A stretch of DNA of 64,000 nucleotides from an uncultured Candidatus Saccharibacteria bacterium (lineage in GTDB: Bacteria; Patescibacteriota; Doudnabacteria; UBA920), in assembly GCA_964348935.1 (NCBI GenBank), contig CAYGEJ010000001.1, positions 51,807 to 115,806 of the forward strand. The letters run 5' to 3'. Within the stretch, counting starts at the first letter, position 1; every line of letters starts with the position of its first letter. A model generated the notes under the pieces. The model did no database searches. It had not been told where the DNA came from and saw nothing but the letters and a program-made list of their open reading frames with translations. Of this stretch, positions 3,350-57,174 are shown one piece after another. The position numbers and the translations under genes were made by a program.

Positions 3350-3388
3350 ATAAATTTTAAGATTTTTGTGTTATAATAAAAAGAGACT

Positions 3389-3835
3389 ATGCAATTTCCA
3401 GTCCCACAATTTACAGATGTTGAAGATCGAATAATTGGTCCTTTGACGATAAAGCAATTCGGTATTGTTTTTGTGGCAGGTGTTATAGTTTTTCTTGGAT
3501 ATTCGGCTACCAAAAGCATTCTCGTTTTAGTTTTTTTAATAGTATTATTTGGAGTTCCGGCTTTAGCCTTAGCTTTTCTGCCATTTAACGGCAGACCAGT
3601 TTATAACACTTTGGGGAATTTAATGAGATTTATGAATAGTCCAAAGGAATTAATTTTTCATAAAGAAGCCCAGAATTCAAATATAAAAATTGTAAAAGAT
3701 GCTGAAATAACTTCGGTGGCTGAGGTTCAAGCGGAAAATATAAACCCGGTAGATACTAAAGCTAATTTAAAAGAGGTACAAAAATTATTACGTGAGACAG
3801 CCTCAAAGCAAAGAGATGTAATTGGTAGAATGTAG
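3389..3835 (+). CDS. small two-TM membrane protein, possibly a PrgI/VirB3-like T4SS component
   Basis: 148 aa with two adjacent hydrophobic helices (FGIVFVAGVIVFLGY...LVLVFLIVLFGVPALALAFLPF). It sits directly upstream of the VirB4-like ATPase, which is the usual position of VirB3/PrgI-like proteins. Confidence 0.4.
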   Translation: MQFPVPQFTDVEDRIIGPLTIKQFGIVFVAGVIVFLGYSATKSILVLVFLIVLFGVPALALAFLPFNGRPVYNTLGNLMRFMNSPKELIFHKEAQNSNIKIVKDAEITSVAEVQAENINPVDTKANLKEVQKLLRETASKQRDVIGRM

Positions 3836-3889
3836 GACTAAGTTGCGAGTTGCTAATATTTAGTAACTAGCCACTAACAACTAGAGCTT

Positions 3890-4573
3890 ATGAAATTAGA
3901 CATGCAAAATAAAAATAAAACTACCACAAAAAGTACCCAGAGCTTTTTAAGAATATCTGAAATAAAAAATGACACAGTAGTAATGGATGACGGTACGCTA
4001 AGGGCAATAGTGGCTGTTTCAAGTACAAATTTTGATCTTAAAAGTCAAGATGAGCAAAATTCCATAATTTTTAATTTCCAAAGATTTTTGAATTCTTTAG
4101 ATTTTTCTATTCAGATTTTGATGCAAAGTCGAAAAATGGAAATTGGGGGCTATATGGAAAAGTTAAGGCGATTGGCTGAAAAACAGACAAATGAGTTGCT
4201 TCGCGTGCAAACTATTGAATATGTGGAGTTTATAAATAGACTTATTGAAAATGCGAGCATTATGAATAAGAATTTTTATATTATTGTCCCGTTGGGGACT
4301 TCCATATTACCGGTTGCATCTGGTTTTTTCTCGAACTTATTTGGTAATGGTAAAAATAAAGAGATTGCCCAAAAAATAGAGAATTTTGAAAGAGAAAAAG
4401 AAAAATTAGATACCCGAGTTTCCTCTTTATTATCTAACTTATCCGGTATAGGAATAAGGGGGGTTCCTTTAAAAACCGAAGAGATTATTCAATTGTATTA
4501 TAATTCTTATAATTTTGAAGCAGGTCCTCTAATAAACCCGTCGCAACTTAAAGATATTAAGATTAGTGAGTAG
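3890..4573 (+). CDS. VirB4/TrsE-like conjugal ATPase, N-terminal fragment (split gene)
   Basis: 227-aa ORF resembling the N-terminal domain of Gram-positive-type VirB4 (FLRISEIKNDTVVMDDGTLRAIVAVSSTNFDLKSQDEQNSIIFNFQRFLNSL..IQIL). It ends just before the four-helix-bundle gene. The downstream ORF continues with the next conserved VirB4 segment. Confidence 0.55.
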   Translation: MKLDMQNKNKTTTKSTQSFLRISEIKNDTVVMDDGTLRAIVAVSSTNFDLKSQDEQNSIIFNFQRFLNSLDFSIQILMQSRKMEIGGYMEKLRRLAEKQTNELLRVQTIEYVEFINRLIENASIMNKNFYIIVPLGTSILPVASGFFSNLFGNGKNKEIAQKIENFEREKEKLDTRVSSLLSNLSGIGIRGVPLKTEEIIQLYYNSYNFEAGPLINPSQLKDIKISE

Positions 4574-4587
4574 TTACTAGGTGCTAG

Positions 4588-5007
4588 GTGCAAGTGACTA
4601 GTATCAAACAAGCAGATATTAAGTATTTAATGAGTAATTCTATTATGTCGATATCTCATTATAAAGAATTAATAGTTTGGCAAAAATCTATGAATTTAGT
4701 AGATCTAATATATATAATAACTAGACAATTTCCAAAGTCGGAAACTTATGCATTAGCAAGTCAGATGCAAAGGTCAGCAATTTCTATACCTTCTAATATT
4801 GCAGAAGGGCAAGGTAGAAATCATAAAGCAGAATTTGTACACTTTTTAGGTATATCTTTTGGTTCCTCTGCCGAATTAGAAACACAAATTTTAATAGCTA
4901 AAAAACAGTATCCGCTATTAAATTATAATAAAGCTGAGGATTTATTAGTAGAAGTACAAAAAATGTTATCAGTTTTAATTAATCGTTTACTAGTCACTAA
5001 CAACTAG
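4588..5007 (+). CDS. four helix bundle protein (23S rRNA intervening-sequence protein family)
   Basis: 139 aa with the family signature (ELIVWQKSMNLVDLIYIITRQFPKSETYALASQMQRSAISIPSNIAEGQGR...FLGISFGSSAELETQILIA), as I recall this family. Located between the two VirB4 fragments. Confidence 0.8.
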   Translation: MQVTSIKQADIKYLMSNSIMSISHYKELIVWQKSMNLVDLIYIITRQFPKSETYALASQMQRSAISIPSNIAEGQGRNHKAEFVHFLGISFGSSAELETQILIAKKQYPLLNYNKAEDLLVEVQKMLSVLINRLLVTNN

Positions 5008-5024
5008 AAACTAGCAACTAACTC

Positions 5025-6872
5025 ATGGCTATATTTGGCACAATTGATGAGCAGGAATTAAAAGAGAAGCGAGAAGCTTTGAACGAAGCTGAGAAAGAAA
5101 GAGATTTAAGCTCTAGTCTTGGAGATTTGGAAAAAACCTACAAGGAAGGTTTGACTACTCTAAAAGACCTTATTGCTCCTGCTTCGCTTAAATTTAATAG
5201 TTCTAACTTTGAACTTAACGGTAAGTTTGGTCGTAGTTTTTTTGTGCTGGCATATCCGCGATTTCTTTCTACCAATTGGTTGTCTTTTATTATTCAAGCC
5301 GAAGGTGCATTGGATTTGTCCATGTTTATATATCCGATTGAGTCTGCGGATATCTTAAAAAAATTGAAGTCAAAAGTCGGGGAATTGGGATCCCAAATGT
5401 CCATAAATCAATCTAAGGGAATGGTTCGCGACCCAATGCTGGAAACGGCGTATAAGGATGTTGAAGGTTTGCGTGATAACTTAATGCAGGGTACGGAAAA
5501 GTATTTTCGATTTGCTTTGTATTTTACAATTTATGCAAATGACCTAAAAGAGTTAGACAAATTTTCTTCAACGTTGGAAAGTTCTTTGGGGTCAAAATTA
5601 GTGGTTACTAAACGAGCTTTATTGCAAACTCAAAATGGGTTGAATTCCACTTTGCCTTTAGGTTTAGATGAACTGGATGTTGCTAGTAATATGAATACCA
5701 GCCCACTTTCTAGCTGCTTCCCCTTTGTTTCCTCGGACTTGAGTAGTAATGACGGAGTTCTTTATGGTATAAATAGGCATAACAATAGTCTAATCCTATT
5801 TGACCGCTTTGCAATGGAAAATGCTAATTCAGTAGTATTTGCCAAATCCGGTGCTGGGAAGTCTTACGCGGTAAAATTAGAGGTTTTGAGGGCCTTAATG
5901 GTGGGGACGGAAGTAATTATTGTTGACCCGGAAAATGAATATCAGCATTTAGCGTCTGCTGTGGGCGGTACTTATTTAAGCGTTTCTTTAAATTCACCTT
6001 CCAGAATTAACCCGTTTGATTTACCGGTAGCTATTGAAGGAGAAGATAATACCGATGTACTTAGAAGTTCGGTTATTAATTTACTTGGATTGTTTAGTTT
6101 AATGCTTGGAAAATTAAACCCGACTGAAGAAGCATTAATGGATAAAGCTATTTGGCAGACTTATGCGAAAAAAGATATTACTCCTCAGCTTGCAGATTTT
6201 CGTGGAGTGGAATATCCGACGATGAATGATTTGGTGGAGATTCTAAATGGTATGGTTGGGGCGGAAAGTTTGGCTCAGAGAATGACAAAATATACGGAAG
6301 GGACTTTTGCCGGGTTGTTAAACCAGCAGACCAATGTCGTTTTAAATAATCAGCTGGTAGTGTTTTCTATTCGCGACCTGGAAGAGGAGTTGCGACCTAT
6401 TTCTATGTACATTATTTTGAATTATATTTGGAATATTGTTCGATCAGAACTTAAAAAGCGTATACTTGTTGTGGATGAAGCTTGGATTTTAATGCAGCAT
6501 GAAGATAGTGCGCGTTTCTTGTTTGGTATAGCCAAGCGTGCTCGAAAATATTATTTAGGATTAACCACAATAACTCAAGATGTCGCAGATTTTTTAGCCT
6601 CGCCTTACGGTAAGCCAATTGTGACAAACTCCTCTATACAGCTTTTACTTAAGCAAAGCCCCGCAGCTATTAATGTAATTGCAGAAACTTTTTTTCTTAC
6701 AGAAGGTGAAAAATATTTGCTTTTGGAAAGCGAAGTTGGAGAAGGGATTTTCTTTGCAGGTTTAAAACACGCGGCGATTAAGATTTATGCGTCTTATGTT
6801 GAAGACCAGATTATTACCACGGATCCAAAACAGTTGTTGGAAATTCAGGATAGCCAGGATAAACTTGGTTAA
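5025..6872 (+). CDS. virB4: VirB4/TrbE/TraC-like type IV secretion ATPase (C-terminal ATPase part)
   Basis: Walker A FAKSGAGKSYAV, Walker B ILVVDEAWIL and the conserved VirB4 N-proximal segment (GKFGRSFFVLAYPRFLSTNWLSFII...DLSMFIYPIE). 615 aa. Confidence 0.8.
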   Translation: MAIFGTIDEQELKEKREALNEAEKERDLSSSLGDLEKTYKEGLTTLKDLIAPASLKFNSSNFELNGKFGRSFFVLAYPRFLSTNWLSFIIQAEGALDLSMFIYPIESADILKKLKSKVGELGSQMSINQSKGMVRDPMLETAYKDVEGLRDNLMQGTEKYFRFALYFTIYANDLKELDKFSSTLESSLGSKLVVTKRALLQTQNGLNSTLPLGLDELDVASNMNTSPLSSCFPFVSSDLSSNDGVLYGINRHNNSLILFDRFAMENANSVVFAKSGAGKSYAVKLEVLRALMVGTEVIIVDPENEYQHLASAVGGTYLSVSLNSPSRINPFDLPVAIEGEDNTDVLRSSVINLLGLFSLMLGKLNPTEEALMDKAIWQTYAKKDITPQLADFRGVEYPTMNDLVEILNGMVGAESLAQRMTKYTEGTFAGLLNQQTNVVLNNQLVVFSIRDLEEELRPISMYIILNYIWNIVRSELKKRILVVDEAWILMQHEDSARFLFGIAKRARKYYLGLTTITQDVADFLASPYGKPIVTNSSIQLLLKQSPAAINVIAETFFLTEGEKYLLLESEVGEGIFFAGLKHAAIKIYASYVEDQIITTDPKQLLEIQDSQDKLG

Positions 6873-20187: not shown

Positions 20188-22743
20188 TTAGACTAACACT
20201 GGAATTTTGGCACTTTTGTGGACGGTAAAGGCAATTTTATCCTTTTTAACATCTGCGTTAATGACCACACCGGCTTTAGCACCACCGGCAATAATTTTTT
20301 CTGCCAACGGGTCTTCTAGAAAGATTTGAATATTTTTTCTGACAAAACGAGCACCTTGTGCAGGATCGAAACTTTTTTCAGAAATAAATTTTGTTACTGC
20401 AGAAGTTACTTTTAGTTGGACTTCCTGTTCAAGGAGTCTGCTTTGAAGTTGTGAAATTTGTAAGGTGGTAATTTTTTTGAGTTCACCAAAGCCTAAAGGT
20501 TTAAAAACAATAATTTTGTCGATACGGTTGAGAAATTCAGGTTTAAATTCTTGTTTTAACTGTTCCAATACACCATTTTTAACCTTTTCGTAATCTTGTT
20601 CCAGCTTAATTTTATGATCTTTAACTTCATCCAGTTTTTCTATAAAACCAATTTTTGCGGCTTGGTTGGTAAGTTCTTGCATGCCTAAATTAGAGGTCAT
20701 AATTATTACTGAGTTGCGGAAGTTGACTTTCTTACCTTCTGCGTCTGTTAGTTGTCCGTCTTCAAGAATTTGTAAGAAGATATTAAAGACATCTGGATTA
20801 GCTTTTTCAATTTCGTCAAACAGGATAACAGAATAAGGTTTTCTCCTGACTGCTTCGGTAAGTCTGCCACCTTCGCCGTATCCAACGTAACCGGCTGGTG
20901 CGCCAATAAGGCGGGCGACATTATGGCGTTCCATAAGTTCACTCATATCGACTCTTATCAGTGCTTCTTCGTCTTCAAAAATTTCTTTGGCTAGAACTTT
21001 TGCGGTTTCAGTTTTGCCAACTCCTGTAGGACCAAGAAAAATGAAAGAACCAAGAGGTTTTTTTGGGTCAGTAATTCCGGCTCTACTTCTTCTTATTGCC
21101 TTGGCGACTTCTTCCACTGCAGTATCTTGCCCAACAATTTTAGATTTTAAAGTTTTTTCTAAATTAACTAGCTTGCCGATATCGGTTTTGGCCAACTTAT
21201 GCAGGGGGATTTTAGTCATCATGGAAACTGTATGGGCAATATCTTCGGATGAGATAATATGGGAAGGAATTTTTTCTTCAGCAGCGAGGCTTTTGCTTAA
21301 GGTTTCTTTTTGCTTCAAAAGTTTCTCTTCTTGAGTTCTTAAGTGTAATGCCGTGGTAAAGTCTTGAGCAAGTACGGCTTTGGTTTTTTCTTCTTCGAGT
21401 GCCAAAAGGTCGCTTTCAATTTTTTTAGTGGCTCTTAGTAGTTTACTACTAGAGTTTATTGATCTTAAAAAAGCCGCTGTTTCGTCTATTAAATCCACTG
21501 CTTTGTCGGGGAGGAAACGGTCTTGAATGTAGCGTGAGGAAAGCTCAACAGCTGATTTAATTGCTTCGTCGGTAATAGTGACATTATGATGTTTTTCATA
21601 GTTTGGTTTAAGGCCATGTAAAATTTCAATGGTTTCTTCTTTGCTTGGTTCTTCGACCAAAATTGGCTGGAAACGGCGTTCAAGAGCCGCATCTTTTTCA
21701 ATGTGTTGTTTGTATTCGGTTAGGGTAGTGGCGCCAATGGCACGAAGTTCGCCACGGGCAAGAGCCGGTTTTAAAATATTTGCAGCATCTAGTGAGCCAG
21801 TGGTAGCGCCAGCGCCTACCATGGTGTGGAGTTCGTCTATAAATAAAATGACATTTTTGTCGTTCTTAACTTCGTCGATTATTTGTTTCAGGCGATTTTC
21901 AAACTCGCCTCGAAACATGCTCCCGGCTACAATTAAAGCTAAATCCAAAGACAGGATTTTTTTATCGAGCAGGGTATCGGGTACTTCGCGTTTGGTAATA
22001 GCTAAAGCCAAACCTTCTACAATGGCGGTTTTTCCCACTCCAGCTTCGCCAATTAAAATTGGATTATTTTTAGTTCTGCGGTTTAATATGGAAATCAATC
22101 TTTCAATTTCGCTTTTTCTGCCAATAACTGGATCTATAAGACCGTTGGTTGCTTTTTTGGTTAGGTCGGTGGTAAAAAGTTCAAGGAGGTTGCCTTTTTT
22201 GGTATCTATAATTTTTTGAACTTGAGGAGAACTGGTTTCAAAGCCCGGCTGTTGTCCAGGTTCACTCCCAGAAGGCATTTCGGGAAATTTGGAAATATTA
22301 TCGAACACATTAAGTAGGTTATGATCCAGCTCGTTTATATCTATTCCTAGTTTAGTTAAAATAACCTTGGCTTTATTCTGTTGAACATTAAGTAAGCCAT
22401 ATAGGAAATGTTCAGTACCAATAAATTGATAGCCGTATTGACTTGCAATAATCGCAGATTTTTCAATAACTAATTTCAAATTCTCGGACAAGACGGGTTT
22501 CCAAGTATTTACAGAGTTATTGCTGTTAACAATGGAGAGTTCTTGTTTAATGGAGTCCGGGGTGAGTTTGGTCTTGGTTAAAATTTCTGCGGCAAAAGAA
22601 CTTTTTTCACTGACAACCCCATAAAGTAAATGTTCGGTACCAATATGATCATGCTTCAGTTCCTCACTGACCAGTTGTGCCATAATCAGCGCATTTTTTG
22701 CACGGGAGGAAAGTCGTTCAAGTATGTATGTAAAATTTGTCAT
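20188..22743 (-). CDS. clpC: ATP-dependent Clp protease ATP-binding subunit ClpC (Clp/Hsp100 with two AAA+ domains)
   Basis: Clp N repeats. NBD1 GEAGVGKTAIVEGLA and NBD2 FLGPTGVGKTETAKVLA. Short UVR-like linker (LEEEKTKAVLAQDFTTALHLRTQEEKL) rather than the long ClpB M-domain. KIGF loop. 851 aa. Confidence 0.85.
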   Translation of the reverse strand: MTNFTYILERLSSRAKNALIMAQLVSEELKHDHIGTEHLLYGVVSEKSSFAAEILTKTKLTPDSIKQELSIVNSNNSVNTWKPVLSENLKLVIEKSAIIASQYGYQFIGTEHFLYGLLNVQQNKAKVILTKLGIDINELDHNLLNVFDNISKFPEMPSGSEPGQQPGFETSSPQVQKIIDTKKGNLLELFTTDLTKKATNGLIDPVIGRKSEIERLISILNRRTKNNPILIGEAGVGKTAIVEGLALAITKREVPDTLLDKKILSLDLALIVAGSMFRGEFENRLKQIIDEVKNDKNVILFIDELHTMVGAGATTGSLDAANILKPALARGELRAIGATTLTEYKQHIEKDAALERRFQPILVEEPSKEETIEILHGLKPNYEKHHNVTITDEAIKSAVELSSRYIQDRFLPDKAVDLIDETAAFLRSINSSSKLLRATKKIESDLLALEEEKTKAVLAQDFTTALHLRTQEEKLLKQKETLSKSLAAEEKIPSHIISSEDIAHTVSMMTKIPLHKLAKTDIGKLVNLEKTLKSKIVGQDTAVEEVAKAIRRSRAGITDPKKPLGSFIFLGPTGVGKTETAKVLAKEIFEDEEALIRVDMSELMERHNVARLIGAPAGYVGYGEGGRLTEAVRRKPYSVILFDEIEKANPDVFNIFLQILEDGQLTDAEGKKVNFRNSVIIMTSNLGMQELTNQAAKIGFIEKLDEVKDHKIKLEQDYEKVKNGVLEQLKQEFKPEFLNRIDKIIVFKPLGFGELKKITTLQISQLQSRLLEQEVQLKVTSAVTKFISEKSFDPAQGARFVRKNIQIFLEDPLAEKIIAGGAKAGVVINADVKKDKIAFTVHKSAKIPVLV

Positions 22744-22814
22744 TTTAGTATTTTTATTGCTAGGTATAAATTTCAGTTTAGCTTATAATTATTATATCAG
22801 ATAAATTTAGTATA

Positions 22815-22855
22815 GTATGTGTTATCACTCGTGTCAAGAGAGTGATAACACATAC
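22815..22855. promoter_or_regulatory. CIRCE-like inverted repeat (TTATCACTC-N9-GAGTGATAA within a 16-bp perfect palindrome) overlapping the clpC promoter
   Basis: GTATGTGTTATCACTC gtgtcaaga GAGTGATAACACATAC. Matches the HrcA operator consensus TTAGCACTC-N9-GAGTGCTAA with one change per arm. On the minus strand the spacer holds a TTGACA -35, and 17 nt further on is TATACT. Confidence 0.45.
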
Positions 22856-22863
22856 TTAAAATC

Positions 22864-23367
22864 ATGAATGAAGATTTAAAGACAGAAAAAGAAAAGGCCT
22901 ATAATTATGCAATATATTTGCTGTCTTTAAAATTGCGAACTGAAGGAGAGCTTAGAGACAAATTAAATATTAAGAAATACAAAGACGATATAATAGAGCT
23001 TGTTGTAACTCAGTTGAAAAATGATAAATATATTAACGATCTTAAATATGCGGAAGTTTATGTGCAAAATTTAAAAGCCTATAAATATTTTGGTTTTTAT
23101 GGAATAAAAAAGAAACTATTGGAAAAAAAATTGACAGGGAATTTAATAGAAAAAATTTTAAAAGCTCATTTATCAATTTCGGAAGAGCTGGTTATTGCTA
23201 AAAAATTTTTGAAAAAAGAAAAATTGGAAACAAAAATACCTTCCGAAGAAGGTGTAGCTCATTATCAGGAATTTAACCAAGAAGGGAATAAGGAAAAACA
23301 GAAAATTATGAATAGGCTTAGATCTCGTGGTTTTAGAAGTGAAGTGATATCAAGGTTGATTGTTTGA
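22864..23367 (+). CDS. recX: regulatory protein RecX
   Basis: 167 aa with a RecX-like three-repeat helical pattern (AYNYAIYLLSLKLRTEGELRDKL, KYINDLKYAEVYVQNL, GFYGIKKKLLEKKL). Confidence 0.6.
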   Translation: MNEDLKTEKEKAYNYAIYLLSLKLRTEGELRDKLNIKKYKDDIIELVVTQLKNDKYINDLKYAEVYVQNLKAYKYFGFYGIKKKLLEKKLTGNLIEKILKAHLSISEELVIAKKFLKKEKLETKIPSEEGVAHYQEFNQEGNKEKQKIMNRLRSRGFRSEVISRLIV

Positions 23368-23368
23368 T

Positions 23369-23674
23369 TTAATTGAAGAAACCATCTTGTTCTAACATTT
23401 GATTGAGTTCCGATAGGGTTAGTCTATTTCCCCAGAATTTTAATATTACGTTACCTATTATTTTATTTTTGTTTCCTAAAGATTGAGCGACGCGTAAGAC
23501 ATCTTCTTTGGTTAAACGTTCATTCTTTTGAAAATTTCCAGATTTTTTTAAAGTCTCGTAATAGTCTTTCAAGTGGTGTTTAAAATTATCCCGAACATTT
23601 TGTTGAAATTTAAGAAGTTCAGTGTCGGACATTTCAAATCTTAAAGCAGCTTTAGATCTGTTTTCTCTGCTCAT
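23369..23674 (-). CDS. hypothetical small protein
   Basis: 101-aa ORF whose stop region overlaps the htpX start (ATGA). No recognisable motif. Confidence 0.4.
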   Translation of the reverse strand: MSRENRSKAALRFEMSDTELLKFQQNVRDNFKHHLKDYYETLKKSGNFQKNERLTKEDVLRVAQSLGNKNKIIGNVILKFWGNRLTLSELNQMLEQDGFFN

Positions 23675-24582
23675 AGATTCATTTCTCTTAACCTTTTAAT
23701 TCGTTCTTCAATAGGTGGATGAGTATTAAATAAGTTGGCAAACCAGCCCACGCTGTCACCTTTATGTTCTTTGAGTGGATTAATTATATACATATGAGCG
23801 GTGGCTTTGTTAGCTGCTTCAAGAGGTTCGGTGTCTTTGCTGATTTTTTCTAAAGCTCGAGCTAGGCCCTCCGGATGGCGGGTTAGGAGAGCCCCTGAGG
23901 CATCTGCCAGGAATTCTCTTTGTCTGGAGACAGCAAGTTTTATAAGTGTGGCAATAATTGGGGAAAGAATCGCTAGTAGAATACCAGCAATCATAAAAAA
24001 TATTTGCATTTGGTTGCCGCCTTCACTGTCAGATTTGCGTCTGCCACCGAAAAAGCTGGCACGTAGAAACCAATCTGCCAGTAGGGTGATTGTGCCGACC
24101 AATACTACAACCAAAGTCATTACACGAATATCATAGTTCCCAATATGGGAAAGTTCATGGGCTATAACACCTTCAAGTTCGGCTTTGTCTAATTTTTGTA
24201 AAATTCCGGTGGTAACGCAAACTACGGCATGTTGTGGGTCGCGCCCAGTTGCAAAAGCGTTTGGTGCGGTATCGTCTATAATATAAATTTTTGGAGTTGG
24301 AAGTCCTCCCGCAATACAGAGGTTTTCTACAATTCTAAATAGTTCTTGATTGTTTTGGCGGTTAATTTCTTTTGCTTGAGAAAGCGCAAGGGTTATTGAA
24401 TCGCTGAAGTAGTAGGAAATAAAACTGGAAAAAATACTAAAACCAACCGCAAAGTAGAGTATTGCGGAATTGTTGTAAACTCGGGAAAATGCAAAGCCGA
24501 GTAAACTAATTATGACTAAAAAGCTGAATATTAAAATCCAGCTTTCGCGTTTATTTTTATTTATAAGATCGTAAGTTAACAT
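23671..24582 (-). CDS. htpX: protease HtpX (M48 zinc metalloprotease)
   Basis: HELSHIGNYD (HExxH). Four TM segments. C-terminal NTHPPIEERIKRL. 303 aa. Confidence 0.85.
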   Translation of the reverse strand: MLTYDLINKNKRESWILIFSFLVIISLLGFAFSRVYNNSAILYFAVGFSIFSSFISYYFSDSITLALSQAKEINRQNNQELFRIVENLCIAGGLPTPKIYIIDDTAPNAFATGRDPQHAVVCVTTGILQKLDKAELEGVIAHELSHIGNYDIRVMTLVVVLVGTITLLADWFLRASFFGGRRKSDSEGGNQMQIFFMIAGILLAILSPIIATLIKLAVSRQREFLADASGALLTRHPEGLARALEKISKDTEPLEAANKATAHMYIINPLKEHKGDSVGWFANLFNTHPPIEERIKRLREMNL

Positions 24583-24616
24583 AGCTTATAAGTTTTTGGG
24601 GGATTGTTCCTAACAA

Positions 24617-25162
24617 CTAAAAGCTAACTTTTACTGGTTGTCCTTCTACACCTTTTTCATCTATATCAAAGAATTGCTTTACAGTAAAGCCAAAAAGAGA
24701 AGCGAAAAGATTGGTTGGGAAAACTTGGAGTTTGGTGTTGTAGTCGCGCACGTTGCCGTTGTAAAAGCGCCTGGCTGCTTGAATTTTGTCTTCTGTGTCG
24801 GTAAGATCGCTTTGCATTTTTAAAAAGTTAGTATTACTTTTTAAATCCGGGTAAGCCTCGCTAACTGCAAATAAAGATTTTAAAGCTCCAGAAAGCATAT
24901 TTTCATCTTTTAACTTTTCTTCCATACTGCCAGCACCCATAGCCAAAGTACGGGCCTTGGTGACATTTTCTAATACTGAAGATTCCTGTTTAGCATAACC
25001 TTTTACAGTGTCTACTAAGTTTGGAATTAAGTCGTAGCGCCTTTTTAATTGAACTTCAATATCACTCCAGGCTTCTTCTACTTGGTTTCGGCTTCTGATT
25101 AGAGAGTTGTATAAAACAACGAGAATGACCAGAATGGCTAAAATTATATACCAAAATATCAT
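24617..25162 (-). CDS. lemA: LemA family protein
   Basis: N-terminal TM helix then the conserved LemA domain (SEAYPDLKSNTNFLKMQSDLTDTEDKIQAARRFYNGNVRDYNTKLQVFPTNLFASLFGF). 181 aa. Confidence 0.8.
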   Translation of the reverse strand: MIFWYIILAILVILVVLYNSLIRSRNQVEEAWSDIEVQLKRRYDLIPNLVDTVKGYAKQESSVLENVTKARTLAMGAGSMEEKLKDENMLSGALKSLFAVSEAYPDLKSNTNFLKMQSDLTDTEDKIQAARRFYNGNVRDYNTKLQVFPTNLFASLFGFTVKQFFDIDEKGVEGQPVKVSF

Positions 25163-25356
25163 ATGATTAATTTAATGATTAATGTATATATTATAGCATA
25201 GTTAAGGATAGTTATAAAAGTTAGAAAGTTTGAACTAATTTGAAGAGTTGAGACGGTTTGTATCCTTACGAGTATATATTTTTATAACTCTCGATTTTAT
25301 GGTATAATAAATTGAGTAAAATACTGATTGAAATCAAAAATAAAATTGTTATACAA

Positions 25357-56654: not shown

Positions 56655-56683
56655 TTGACAAAACGGGTAAAAGGGTGTATAAT
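56655..56683 (+). promoter_or_regulatory. consensus sigma70 promoter (TTGACA-N17-TATAAT) for the RHH regulator gene, with a second TATAAT 15 nt downstream
   Basis: cccTTGACAaaacgggtaaaagggtgTATAATaatcaattttttgtTATAATttg. Lies 50 nt upstream of the ATG at 56734. Confidence 0.4.
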
Positions 56684-56733
56684 AATCAATTTTTTGTTAT
56701 AATTTGTGAGCTCTGGTTTTTGAGATAATCGTT

Positions 56734-57174
56734 ATGTCACAATATATCGATCGTCACAAAAACAAACGTATGGTTGCACCAAGACTGTGCGAAACCGAAA
56801 TCCAAAAGCTCATGGCAACAAGGATGTTGCCAGGTCACGACCGCCATTCGAGGTTAGAGTTTTTGCTTACGCTAATGACCGAATTAGCCGAGCAGGAACT
56901 TGAATATCGTTTGGCGCCTACTAATACAGAGGCAAGGCATGGGCACGGAACACATCTTCGTATTTCAGACGAGCTGTGGGACAGATTACAAACCTATGCT
57001 TCAGTGTATAGGATGAGAACAGGTGAGCTTGCTCACGAACTGATACTGCTTGGCCTAGAGCTAGTGGAAGAAATAGAGAAAGTGGTCAAGTGGCCACTTA
57101 GGAAGGAGGAGATAAAAAGCCGGTTTAAAAGGACACTTGAACTTCGGTATGGGCGCATGCGCCAGCCGATTTAA
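56734..57174 (+). CDS. tandem ribbon-helix-helix (RHH) DNA-binding protein, putative repressor
   Basis: Two beta-alphaA-alphaB units: KRMVAPRLCETEIQKLMATRMLPGHDRHSRLEFLLTLMTELAEQ and THLRISDELWDRLQTYASVYRMRTGELAHELILLGLELVEE. GC-rich. 146 aa. Confidence 0.5.
   Translation: MSQYIDRHKNKRMVAPRLCETEIQKLMATRMLPGHDRHSRLEFLLTLMTELAEQELEYRLAPTNTEARHGHGTHLRISDELWDRLQTYASVYRMRTGELAHELILLGLELVEEIEKVVKWPLRKEEIKSRFKRTLELRYGRMRQPI

Follow-up and report, generated by a model that had tools for sequence, protein, structure and literature searches.

A probable CIRCE-type HrcA operator within the clpC promoter of a Doudnabacteria bacterium

The core of a palindrome lying between clpC and its divergent neighbor recX in a Doudnabacteria genome probably represents a CIRCE-type HrcA operator that is built into the clpC promoter, and we assign to this reading a probability of about 0.8. 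In the Doudnabacteria lineage, HrcA would then probably control the Clp protease machinery as well. The palindrome is situated in a window of 64,000 nucleotides (64 kb), by which we mean the whole stretch of DNA that was analysed, and the features of the clpC-recX region are collected in Table 1. Classic CIRCE/HrcA sites are known from many phyla, for example at groESL and hrcA-grpE-dnaK of Bacillus subtilis and Chlamydia. In sequence, in position, and in conservation the palindrome core corresponds to such a CIRCE element, and, like these class I sites, it is located in or beside a promoter of the sigma-70 type that drives a gene for protein quality control. In contrast to the class I sites at groE and dnaK, the target here is clpC and, in a related MAG, clpP.

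Table 1. Features of the clpC-recX region, with positions in the 64-kb window.
Feature	Position	Strand	Remark
clpC, ClpC-type AAA+ unfoldase	20188..22743	-	851 aa; Clp_N, two AAA domains, short M domain, IGF loop
Putative recX -10, TATAAT	22784..22789	+	appears to form a bidirectional core with P2
P2, extended -10 promoter TGATATAAT for clpC	22791..22799	-	TGnNATAAT kept in 21/21 unique relatives with shared layout
P1 -10, TATACT, 17 nt after the -35	22809..22814	-	promoter scan; TATAAT-like hexamer in relatives
Perfect inverted repeat, 17+9+17	22814..22856	.	repeat finder; arm unique in window
CIRCE-type operator core TTATCACTC-N9-GAGTGATAA, candidate HrcA binding site	22822..22848	.	single match in window; 26/26 relatives
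P1 -35, TTGACA, inside operator spacer	22832..22837	-	promoter scan; TTGAC kept at ClpC identity >=75%
recX, divergent neighbor of clpC	22864..23367	+	neighbor in every relative with enough upstream sequence

The palindrome, its host, and the clpC promoters

Three features assign the clpC product to the ClpC type, namely an M region of 63 amino acids, compared to 124 in the ClpB-type proteins encountered in the genome-collection scan described below, a UVR-like motif (AQDFTTALHLR) within the M domain, and a ClpP-docking loop (KIGF) in the second AAA module. ClpC proteins are recognized by their short M domain, which contains a UVR-like motif, and by an (I/L/V)GF loop for ClpP docking in the second AAA module. 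NCBIfam ranks ClpB as the best-scoring family for this protein, yet under its cut-off, and ClpA likewise stays under the cut-off; a reading of the product as ClpB was rejected on the length of the M domain and the IGF loop. The closest homologues (75-92% identity) carry the name ClpC at JGI, and those named by NCBI belong to Candidatus Doudnabacteria or to the Patescibacteria group, so that the host is a bacterium of the candidate phyla radiation (Doudnabacteria) and no Firmicute.

In the window, clpC is accompanied by recX, a lemA-htpX operon, secA, comF, and a gene for an ECF sigma factor. The operon, which consists of lemA, htpX, and a small ORF (23369-25162, minus strand), lies beside recX, and its synteny is kept in relatives. 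It has an extended -10 element at 25190-25198, without CIRCE; in other bacteria htpX is a heat-shock protease gene. At some distance, the region 3389-6872 encodes type IV secretion/conjugation-like proteins (a member of the PrgI family and a P-loop ATPase similar to TraG/VirB4), and genes of this kind lie on both sides of a gene whose product is a 23S rRNA intervening-sequence protein (4588-5007).

By direct reading, the sequence at 22815-22855 is GTATGTGTTATCACTC-GTGTCAAGA-GAGTGATAACACATAC. A preliminary description of this DNA had noted here a perfect 16-bp inverted repeat containing the CIRCE core with one substitution per arm. This is borne out, and the repeat finder adds one further pair, giving arms of 17 nt (22814-22830 and 22840-22856) that are 100% complementary and enclose a spacer of 9 nt. 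Compared to the CIRCE consensus TTAGCACTC-N9-GAGTGCTAA, as quoted in PMC3842655, the inner 9+9+9 nt (TTATCACTC-GTGTCAAGA-GAGTGATAA) carry one G>T change per arm, i.e., T instead of G at arm position 4 (the T-variant). They retain the 9-bp inverted arms and the 9-nt spacer of class I sites, with 8/9 identical bases per arm, and match TTAKCACTC-N9-GAGTGMTAA exactly. Even with <=3 mismatches, this is the sole match to the motif in the 64-kb window (0.13 expected), and a search with the 17-mer arm at <=3 mismatches yields no second copy there. The operator core is located 78 nt upstream of clpC and overlaps the -35 hexamer and the spacer of a promoter, P1, which agrees with the promoter consensus at 11/12 positions in the promoter scan.

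The outer 8 nt of the arms (AGTATGTG at 22814-22821 and CACATACT at 22849-22856) are not conserved in relatives, including L207 whose ClpC is 92% identical, and the perfection over 17 nt is peculiar to one strain. The full 17-nt arms were rejected as the functional unit, since the outer 8 nt vary even at this degree of ClpC identity. A template-switch mutation that perfected the palindrome is a possible, though speculative, origin of the outer arms, for which no function is evident. Perfect arms of 17 nt exceed the needs of a CIRCE element, and this extension, which the operator model leaves without explanation, counts against our main explanation.

The preliminary description had further proposed that, on the minus strand, the 9-nt spacer of the palindrome contains TTGACA, that one arm fills the 17-nt promoter spacer, and that TATACT follows. 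The promoter scan recovers exactly this arrangement (22837-22832 and 22814-22809), in which the promoter-proximal operator arm occupies the spacer between the -35 and -10 hexamers of P1. The proposal that the operator sits on the clpC promoter holds equally, as the two overlap and the layout is kept in relatives with a ClpC identity of at least 75%. The location of the -35 hexamer inside the operator spacer is another difference from the class I arrangement. A second promoter, P2, consists of an extended -10 element (TGnNATAAT) that in relatives is found 8-22 nt, mostly 8-12 nt, after the P1 -10; with regard to the P2 start, the operator extends from about -64 to -38. On the minus strand, transcription is predicted to begin near 22802 from P1 and near 22784 from P2.

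If HrcA binds here, the following sequence of events might be envisaged. Under non-stress conditions, an HrcA dimer would occupy the two 9-bp arms and, because the operator spacer contains the -35 hexamer and one arm fills the interval between -35 and -10, bound HrcA would shut RNA polymerase out of P1. Upon heat or proteotoxic stress, HrcA would become inactive and P1 would fire. P2, which needs no -35 hexamer and is situated downstream of the operator and outside of it, may provide basal clpC expression. The degree of clpC repression is therefore uncertain, and this is a point against the main explanation.

Extended -10 elements seem to be common in this DNA. TGNTATAAT occurs 13 times in the window where 4.2 occurrences are expected, an about threefold enrichment, and its sites (for example at 3369, 9488, 15954, 25190, 27817, 47222, and 56695) are mostly placed 10-60 nt upstream of gene starts or of a tRNA gene, suggesting that the extended -10 is probably the default promoter type in the host genome. 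A second tandem layout, TTGACA-17-TATAAT followed 11 nt on by TGTTATAAT, is present at 56655-56703; it resembles the P1/P2 pair of clpC and is without CIRCE, and the ORF downstream of it (56734-57174, 146 aa) has no Pfam match.

CtsR is a regulator of Firmicutes, its class III regulon comprises clpC, clpP, and clpE, and its operator, the CtsR box, is the direct heptad repeat RGTCADNNANRGTCADN. The situation described here is similar to class III control in that clpC and clpP would be subject to repression that responds to heat, through an operator overlapping the promoter, but regulator and operator are different ones and the host is no Firmicute. Within 22744-22863 no CtsR box is detected at <=2 mismatches, and in the window as a whole 30 such matches compare to 28.7 expected. 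The earlier suggestion had been that in this lineage HrcA has taken over clpC from CtsR. Of this suggestion, the CIRCE site at clpC is upheld, whereas a takeover from CtsR is the wrong frame, given a Doudnabacteria host and the absence of a CtsR box from the region upstream of clpC.

Conservation of the operator upstream of clpC

Relatives of clpC were chosen by protein similarity only, employing three exact-protein look-ups and one metagenome scan. A position weight matrix derived from groES and hrcA sites would be uninformative, because those sites had been gathered by exact match to the core, and the protein-selected clpC set therefore serves as an unbiased sample in its place. All of the 26 unique clpC regions (26/26; ClpC 68-92% identical) possess a CIRCE-like site with <=2 mismatches within <=300 nt upstream, compared to 0/5200 shuffled controls, and in 9/26 the site agrees exactly with TTAKCACTC-N9-GAGTGMTAA. 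Distal arms in these relatives read TTATCACTC, TTAGCACTC, TTAGCAGTC, TTATCAGTC, or TTATCAAAC, and proximal arms read GAGTGATAA or GAGTGCTAA, the latter, which is the canonical form, in several of them. At arm position 4 relatives have T or G, with A or C at the mirror position, and through this interchange the element is continuous with the canonical CIRCE sequence.

Both arms are kept symmetrically, and the flanks as well as those spacer bases that do not belong to TTGAC are variable. In close relatives (ClpC >=75% identical), TTGAC is always found in the spacer and a TATAAT-like hexamer follows 3-8 nt past the proximal arm (6-8 nt except for two loci). In the more distant loci L145, L146, L163, L177, and L182, the operator is located beside or downstream of the promoter hexamers and no longer around the -35. 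As the palindrome is kept while the position of the promoter shifts, it behaves as an operator and not as a by-product of the promoter.

One might argue that the conserved sequence is promoter DNA only, consisting of -35 hexamer, spacer, and upstream element, and that its palindromy has no repressor role. It is true that conservation extends to TTGACA and the -10 hexamers and that P1 is wholly overlapped by the element. A promoter alone, however, is difficult to reconcile with arms that are symmetrically kept between variable flanks, with distant relatives that retain the palindrome away from the -35, and with the occurrence of the palindrome before unrelated heat-shock genes, where the spacers differ widely. 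We consider a promoter without operator very improbable.

The T-variant at other heat-shock genes and its candidate repressor

A genome collection was scanned for exact copies of the T-variant, ORFs starting <=350 nt to either side were clustered, and the clusters were checked with Pfam. At least 120 loci were obtained. Among the matches listed, 113 of 121 loci lie upstream of groES, a short hrcA, clpB or clpC, hsp20, dnaK, or clpP. Beside the palindrome, groES is present at at least 48 loci (in 11 of which groEL is visible as well), a Clp ATPase gene at at least 28, a gene for an HrcA of 227 amino acids at at least 23, hsp20 at at least eight, dnaK at at least four, and clpP at at least two; none of these heat-shock genes accompanies it at eight loci among the matches listed. 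The T-variant thus precedes groES, dnaK, and hrcA in other genomes as canonical CIRCE does in class I systems. Also among the matches listed, 10 MAGs carry the T-variant at two heat-shock loci, with hrcA among them in 7/10. Together with the 26/26 relatives, the 113 of 121 listed loci at heat-shock genes sustain the CIRCE-type operator that had been proposed for clpC.

Hosts of the T-variant among the matches listed belong mostly to the candidate phyla radiation (Magasanikbacteria, Peribacteria, Saccharibacteria, Nomurabacteria, and others), and the remaining ones are Rhodobacteraceae, Salinibacter or Salinivenus, and Tissierellia. A number of contigs (L007, L014, L021, L025, L034, L036, L043, L053, L094, L096, L097, and others) are labelled 'uncultured Gammaproteobacteria'. 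They carry a short HrcA of the candidate-phyla-radiation type, or ClpB with a T-variant CIRCE, and their taxonomic labels may be wrong.

Might the palindrome be a dispersed repeat or the end of a mobile element, with no regulatory significance? Long perfect palindromes are typical of some repeat families, and the preliminary description had itself named recurrence at many unrelated loci as the mark of a repeat element. What is observed is the opposite, i.e., a single copy in the window even when three mismatches are allowed, the same intergenic position in all relatives, and heat-shock genes at 113 of the 121 loci among the matches listed. A repeat of this kind is hardly credible.

Clp ATPases associated with the T-variant are of the ClpB type in Magasanikbacteria and their relatives and of the ClpC type in Peribacteria, in L122, and in the Doudnabacteria loci. 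When the T-variant loci were compared with the window for synteny, only the clpC loci L052 and L101 were recovered. In the Doudnabacteria MAG JAEUSE01, clpP is preceded by TTATCACTC-ggcTTGCGT-GAGTGATAA-8 nt-TACTAT (L057:2-28). The design is the same as at clpC, in that the operator spacer contains a -35-like hexamer (TTGCGT), from which TACTAT is separated by 17 nt, and as the T-variant is thus found before clpP too, both partners of ClpCP seem to be CIRCE-controlled in the Doudnabacteria lineage. At other CIRCE-bearing genes among the matches listed, TTGAC is present in the CIRCE spacer in sense orientation at 17 loci versus 2 in antisense orientation, and 26 further loci have a TAnnnT hexamer in the spacer.

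HrcA is, to our knowledge, the only protein that binds CIRCE. According to the model established for B. subtilis and Chlamydia, GroEL is required for active HrcA. The HrcA proteins of the candidate phyla radiation that are encoded beside the palindrome (L010, L016, L021, L034, L039, L043, L044, L053, L061, L070, L073, L074, L094, and others) comprise about 227 amino acids, compared to 338 in HrcA from T. maritima (1STZ), and lack about 110 C-terminal residues. Their N-terminal winged helix is a true HrcA DNA-binding domain and aligns to residues 15-105 of 1STZ (E = 4e-29), and the Pfam family HrcA matches them at 9e-10, covering profile positions 96-215 only. This short form, the cognate HrcA in the candidate phyla radiation, is a further difference from the class I systems. 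A profile built from 16 such proteins gives at least 7961 matches, and short HrcA (PF01628) is abundant in Patescibacteria.

Among the best 120 of these at least 7961 profile matches, none is labelled Doudnabacteria or shares a contig with a Doudnabacteria ClpC. The 64-kb window contains no hrcA, groES/EL, dnaK, grpE, or clpP, and when HrcA, GroES, GroEL, DnaK, Hsp20, and ClpP were used as tblastn queries on the window and on every Doudnabacteria-like locus, no true match was returned. The sole match, obtained with DnaK, corresponds to MreB and was discarded as a false positive. The lack of hrcA, groES/EL, dnaK, and grpE in the window, and of a Doudnabacteria hrcA among the best 120 profile matches, counts against our main explanation.

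That HrcA is the protein binding in this host is what we infer from the company the element keeps in other genomes. Alternatively, another regulator might recognize a CIRCE-like sequence in Doudnabacteria. The lack of an hrcA assigned to Doudnabacteria among the best 120 profile matches would be in line with such a regulator, as would the tolerated changes in the left arm (TTATCAAAC, TTATCAGTC), which lead away from canonical CIRCE. However, the identical motif is encountered in other genomes of the candidate phyla radiation before hrcA (at least 23 loci), where autoregulation is expected, and before groES (at least 48 loci), the right arm is the canonical GAGTGCTAA in several relatives, and the only CIRCE binder we know of is HrcA. 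HrcA-CIRCE is described as a general system (PMC8762339). A regulator other than HrcA is thus unlikely, and a CIRCE-type operator bound by HrcA remains our preferred reading.

For Mollicutes, we know of no ClpP-dependent ClpC. Control of Clp genes by HrcA would not be unprecedented, as HrcA regulons vary and groESL is their sole constant member (PMC545781). In Mollicutes CIRCE is found at clpB and lon (PMC5138195), and in Lactobacillus gasseri clpL is HrcA-regulated, as cited in PMC3192767. The HrcA regulon of Mollicutes (clpB, lon, dnaK; PMC5138195) resembles the situation described here in that, in a small genome with few regulators, HrcA-CIRCE appears to be extended to genes for AAA+ proteases or disaggregases, and in other lineages of the candidate phyla radiation the T-variant precedes ClpB-type genes too. 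It differs in that the window encodes an ATPase of the ClpC type, whose M domain is short and whose IGF loop is of the ClpP-docking kind, and in that clpP is also targeted. In the literature searched, we found no paper that ties HrcA or CIRCE to Patescibacteria, the candidate phyla radiation, or Doudnabacteria.

A putative divergent promoter of recX, and significance

A pseudo-symmetric block at 22784-22799, with elements on both strands, is also present in L001, L005, L127-L149, L164, and L207. On the strand opposite to P2 and 3 bp beyond it, 16/21 unique loci have TGnTAnnnT and the rest have TATAAT or TATACT; this pattern, either a TG extension or a perfect hexamer, argues for a real promoter facing recX. 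Judged by its sequence, the block looks like a bidirectional promoter with predicted starts about 10-12 bp apart, and its geometry fits the 10-bp class, a spacing that is frequent when bacterial promoters are bidirectional (PMC12825309). Bidirectional promoters with pseudo-symmetric -10 elements are known from the work of Warman, Grainger, and colleagues, and the conserved block, TGnNATAAT-3 bp-(opposite strand) TAnnnT-n-CA, is comparable to them in the predicted distance between its starts; in the present case an upstream P1, presumably repressor-gated, is added, and transcription in the recX direction would read through the operator.

With the recX mRNA predicted to start near 22796, the operator would be transcribed, its core lying at about +27 to +53. 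As this mRNA would begin between clpC and the operator, HrcA bound to the latter would present a roadblock to recX transcription too. The preliminary description had stated that the repeat ends 8 nt before recX and had raised control of recX as a possibility. The distance is correct for the 16-nt repeat, as the ATG at 22864 is 8 nt past it and 7 nt past the 17-nt repeat. The possibility itself seems plausible in view of the conserved opposite-strand -10 beyond CIRCE, from which the operator would be read through. In relatives, the distance from operator to recX ATG varies from 1 to 122 nt, and in distant ones recX has its own -10 between operator and gene, so that any control of recX should be limited to the clade with the P1/P2 layout. 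In L129, L131, L143, L144, and L149, the stretch between CIRCE and recX is longer by an insert of roughly 70-90 nt, which harbors inverted repeats (CTACTAAATACTAAA...TTTAGTATTTAGTAG), and a T-run and then the recX ATG follow; this insert, absent from the window, may represent either a small mobile element or a hairpin of the attenuator type.

If the palindrome is transcribed, one may ask whether its main function is that of a hairpin in the 5' leader of the recX RNA, affecting translation or stability, and not that of a DNA operator. The predicted fold is a 17-bp stem of -26.6 kcal/mol (z = -5.3) that ends 7 nt before the recX AUG, and the hairpin would be transcribed if the recX mRNA starts near 22796. 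Yet the long stem exists in one strain only, relatives keeping the 9-bp arms alone, the hairpin lies anywhere from 1 to 122 nt from the recX AUG, and the presence of the motif at groES, hrcA, and clpP would be left unexplained. No known RNA family is found at the palindrome in Rfam, where the sole match is a meaningless miRNA (E = 0.69). A mainly RNA-based role is therefore quite improbable, and since its stem is not conserved, the 17-bp hairpin is at most a local add-on in one strain. An intrinsic terminator was rejected, because the stem has no T-run behind it on either of the two strands and is situated between genes that start divergently.

Returning to the DNA operator, what seems to be new is a CIRCE element on the promoters of clpC and clpP in an uncultured phylum, a plausible but, as read from these sequences, fairly ordinary extension of the system. 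It overturns nothing, since variation among HrcA regulons, with Clp ATPases as members in other reduced genomes, is already established. The interleaving of an operator with promoter hexamers provides a natural and compact template for promoters gated by a repressor. More tentatively, and with less than even odds in our view, a truncated HrcA of about 227 amino acids might be the single master of groESL, dnaK, hsp20, clpB/clpC, and clpP in Doudnabacteria and perhaps in much of the candidate phyla radiation, combined with a compound clpC/recX promoter in which P1 would be gated, P2 free, and recX roadblocked. If this were true, a regulator of RecA would be coupled to proteotoxic stress.

Bacteria of the candidate phyla radiation are uncultured and possess very few transcription factors, and the regulation of their stress genes is therefore almost unknown. 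The universal HrcA-CIRCE switch apparently governs, in these bacteria, not chaperonins alone but also the Clp unfoldase together with its protease, and possibly recX, which provides a testable case, and TTAKCACTC-N9-GAGTGMTAA offers a regulon signature with which heat-shock regulons can be annotated in metagenomes of the candidate phyla radiation.
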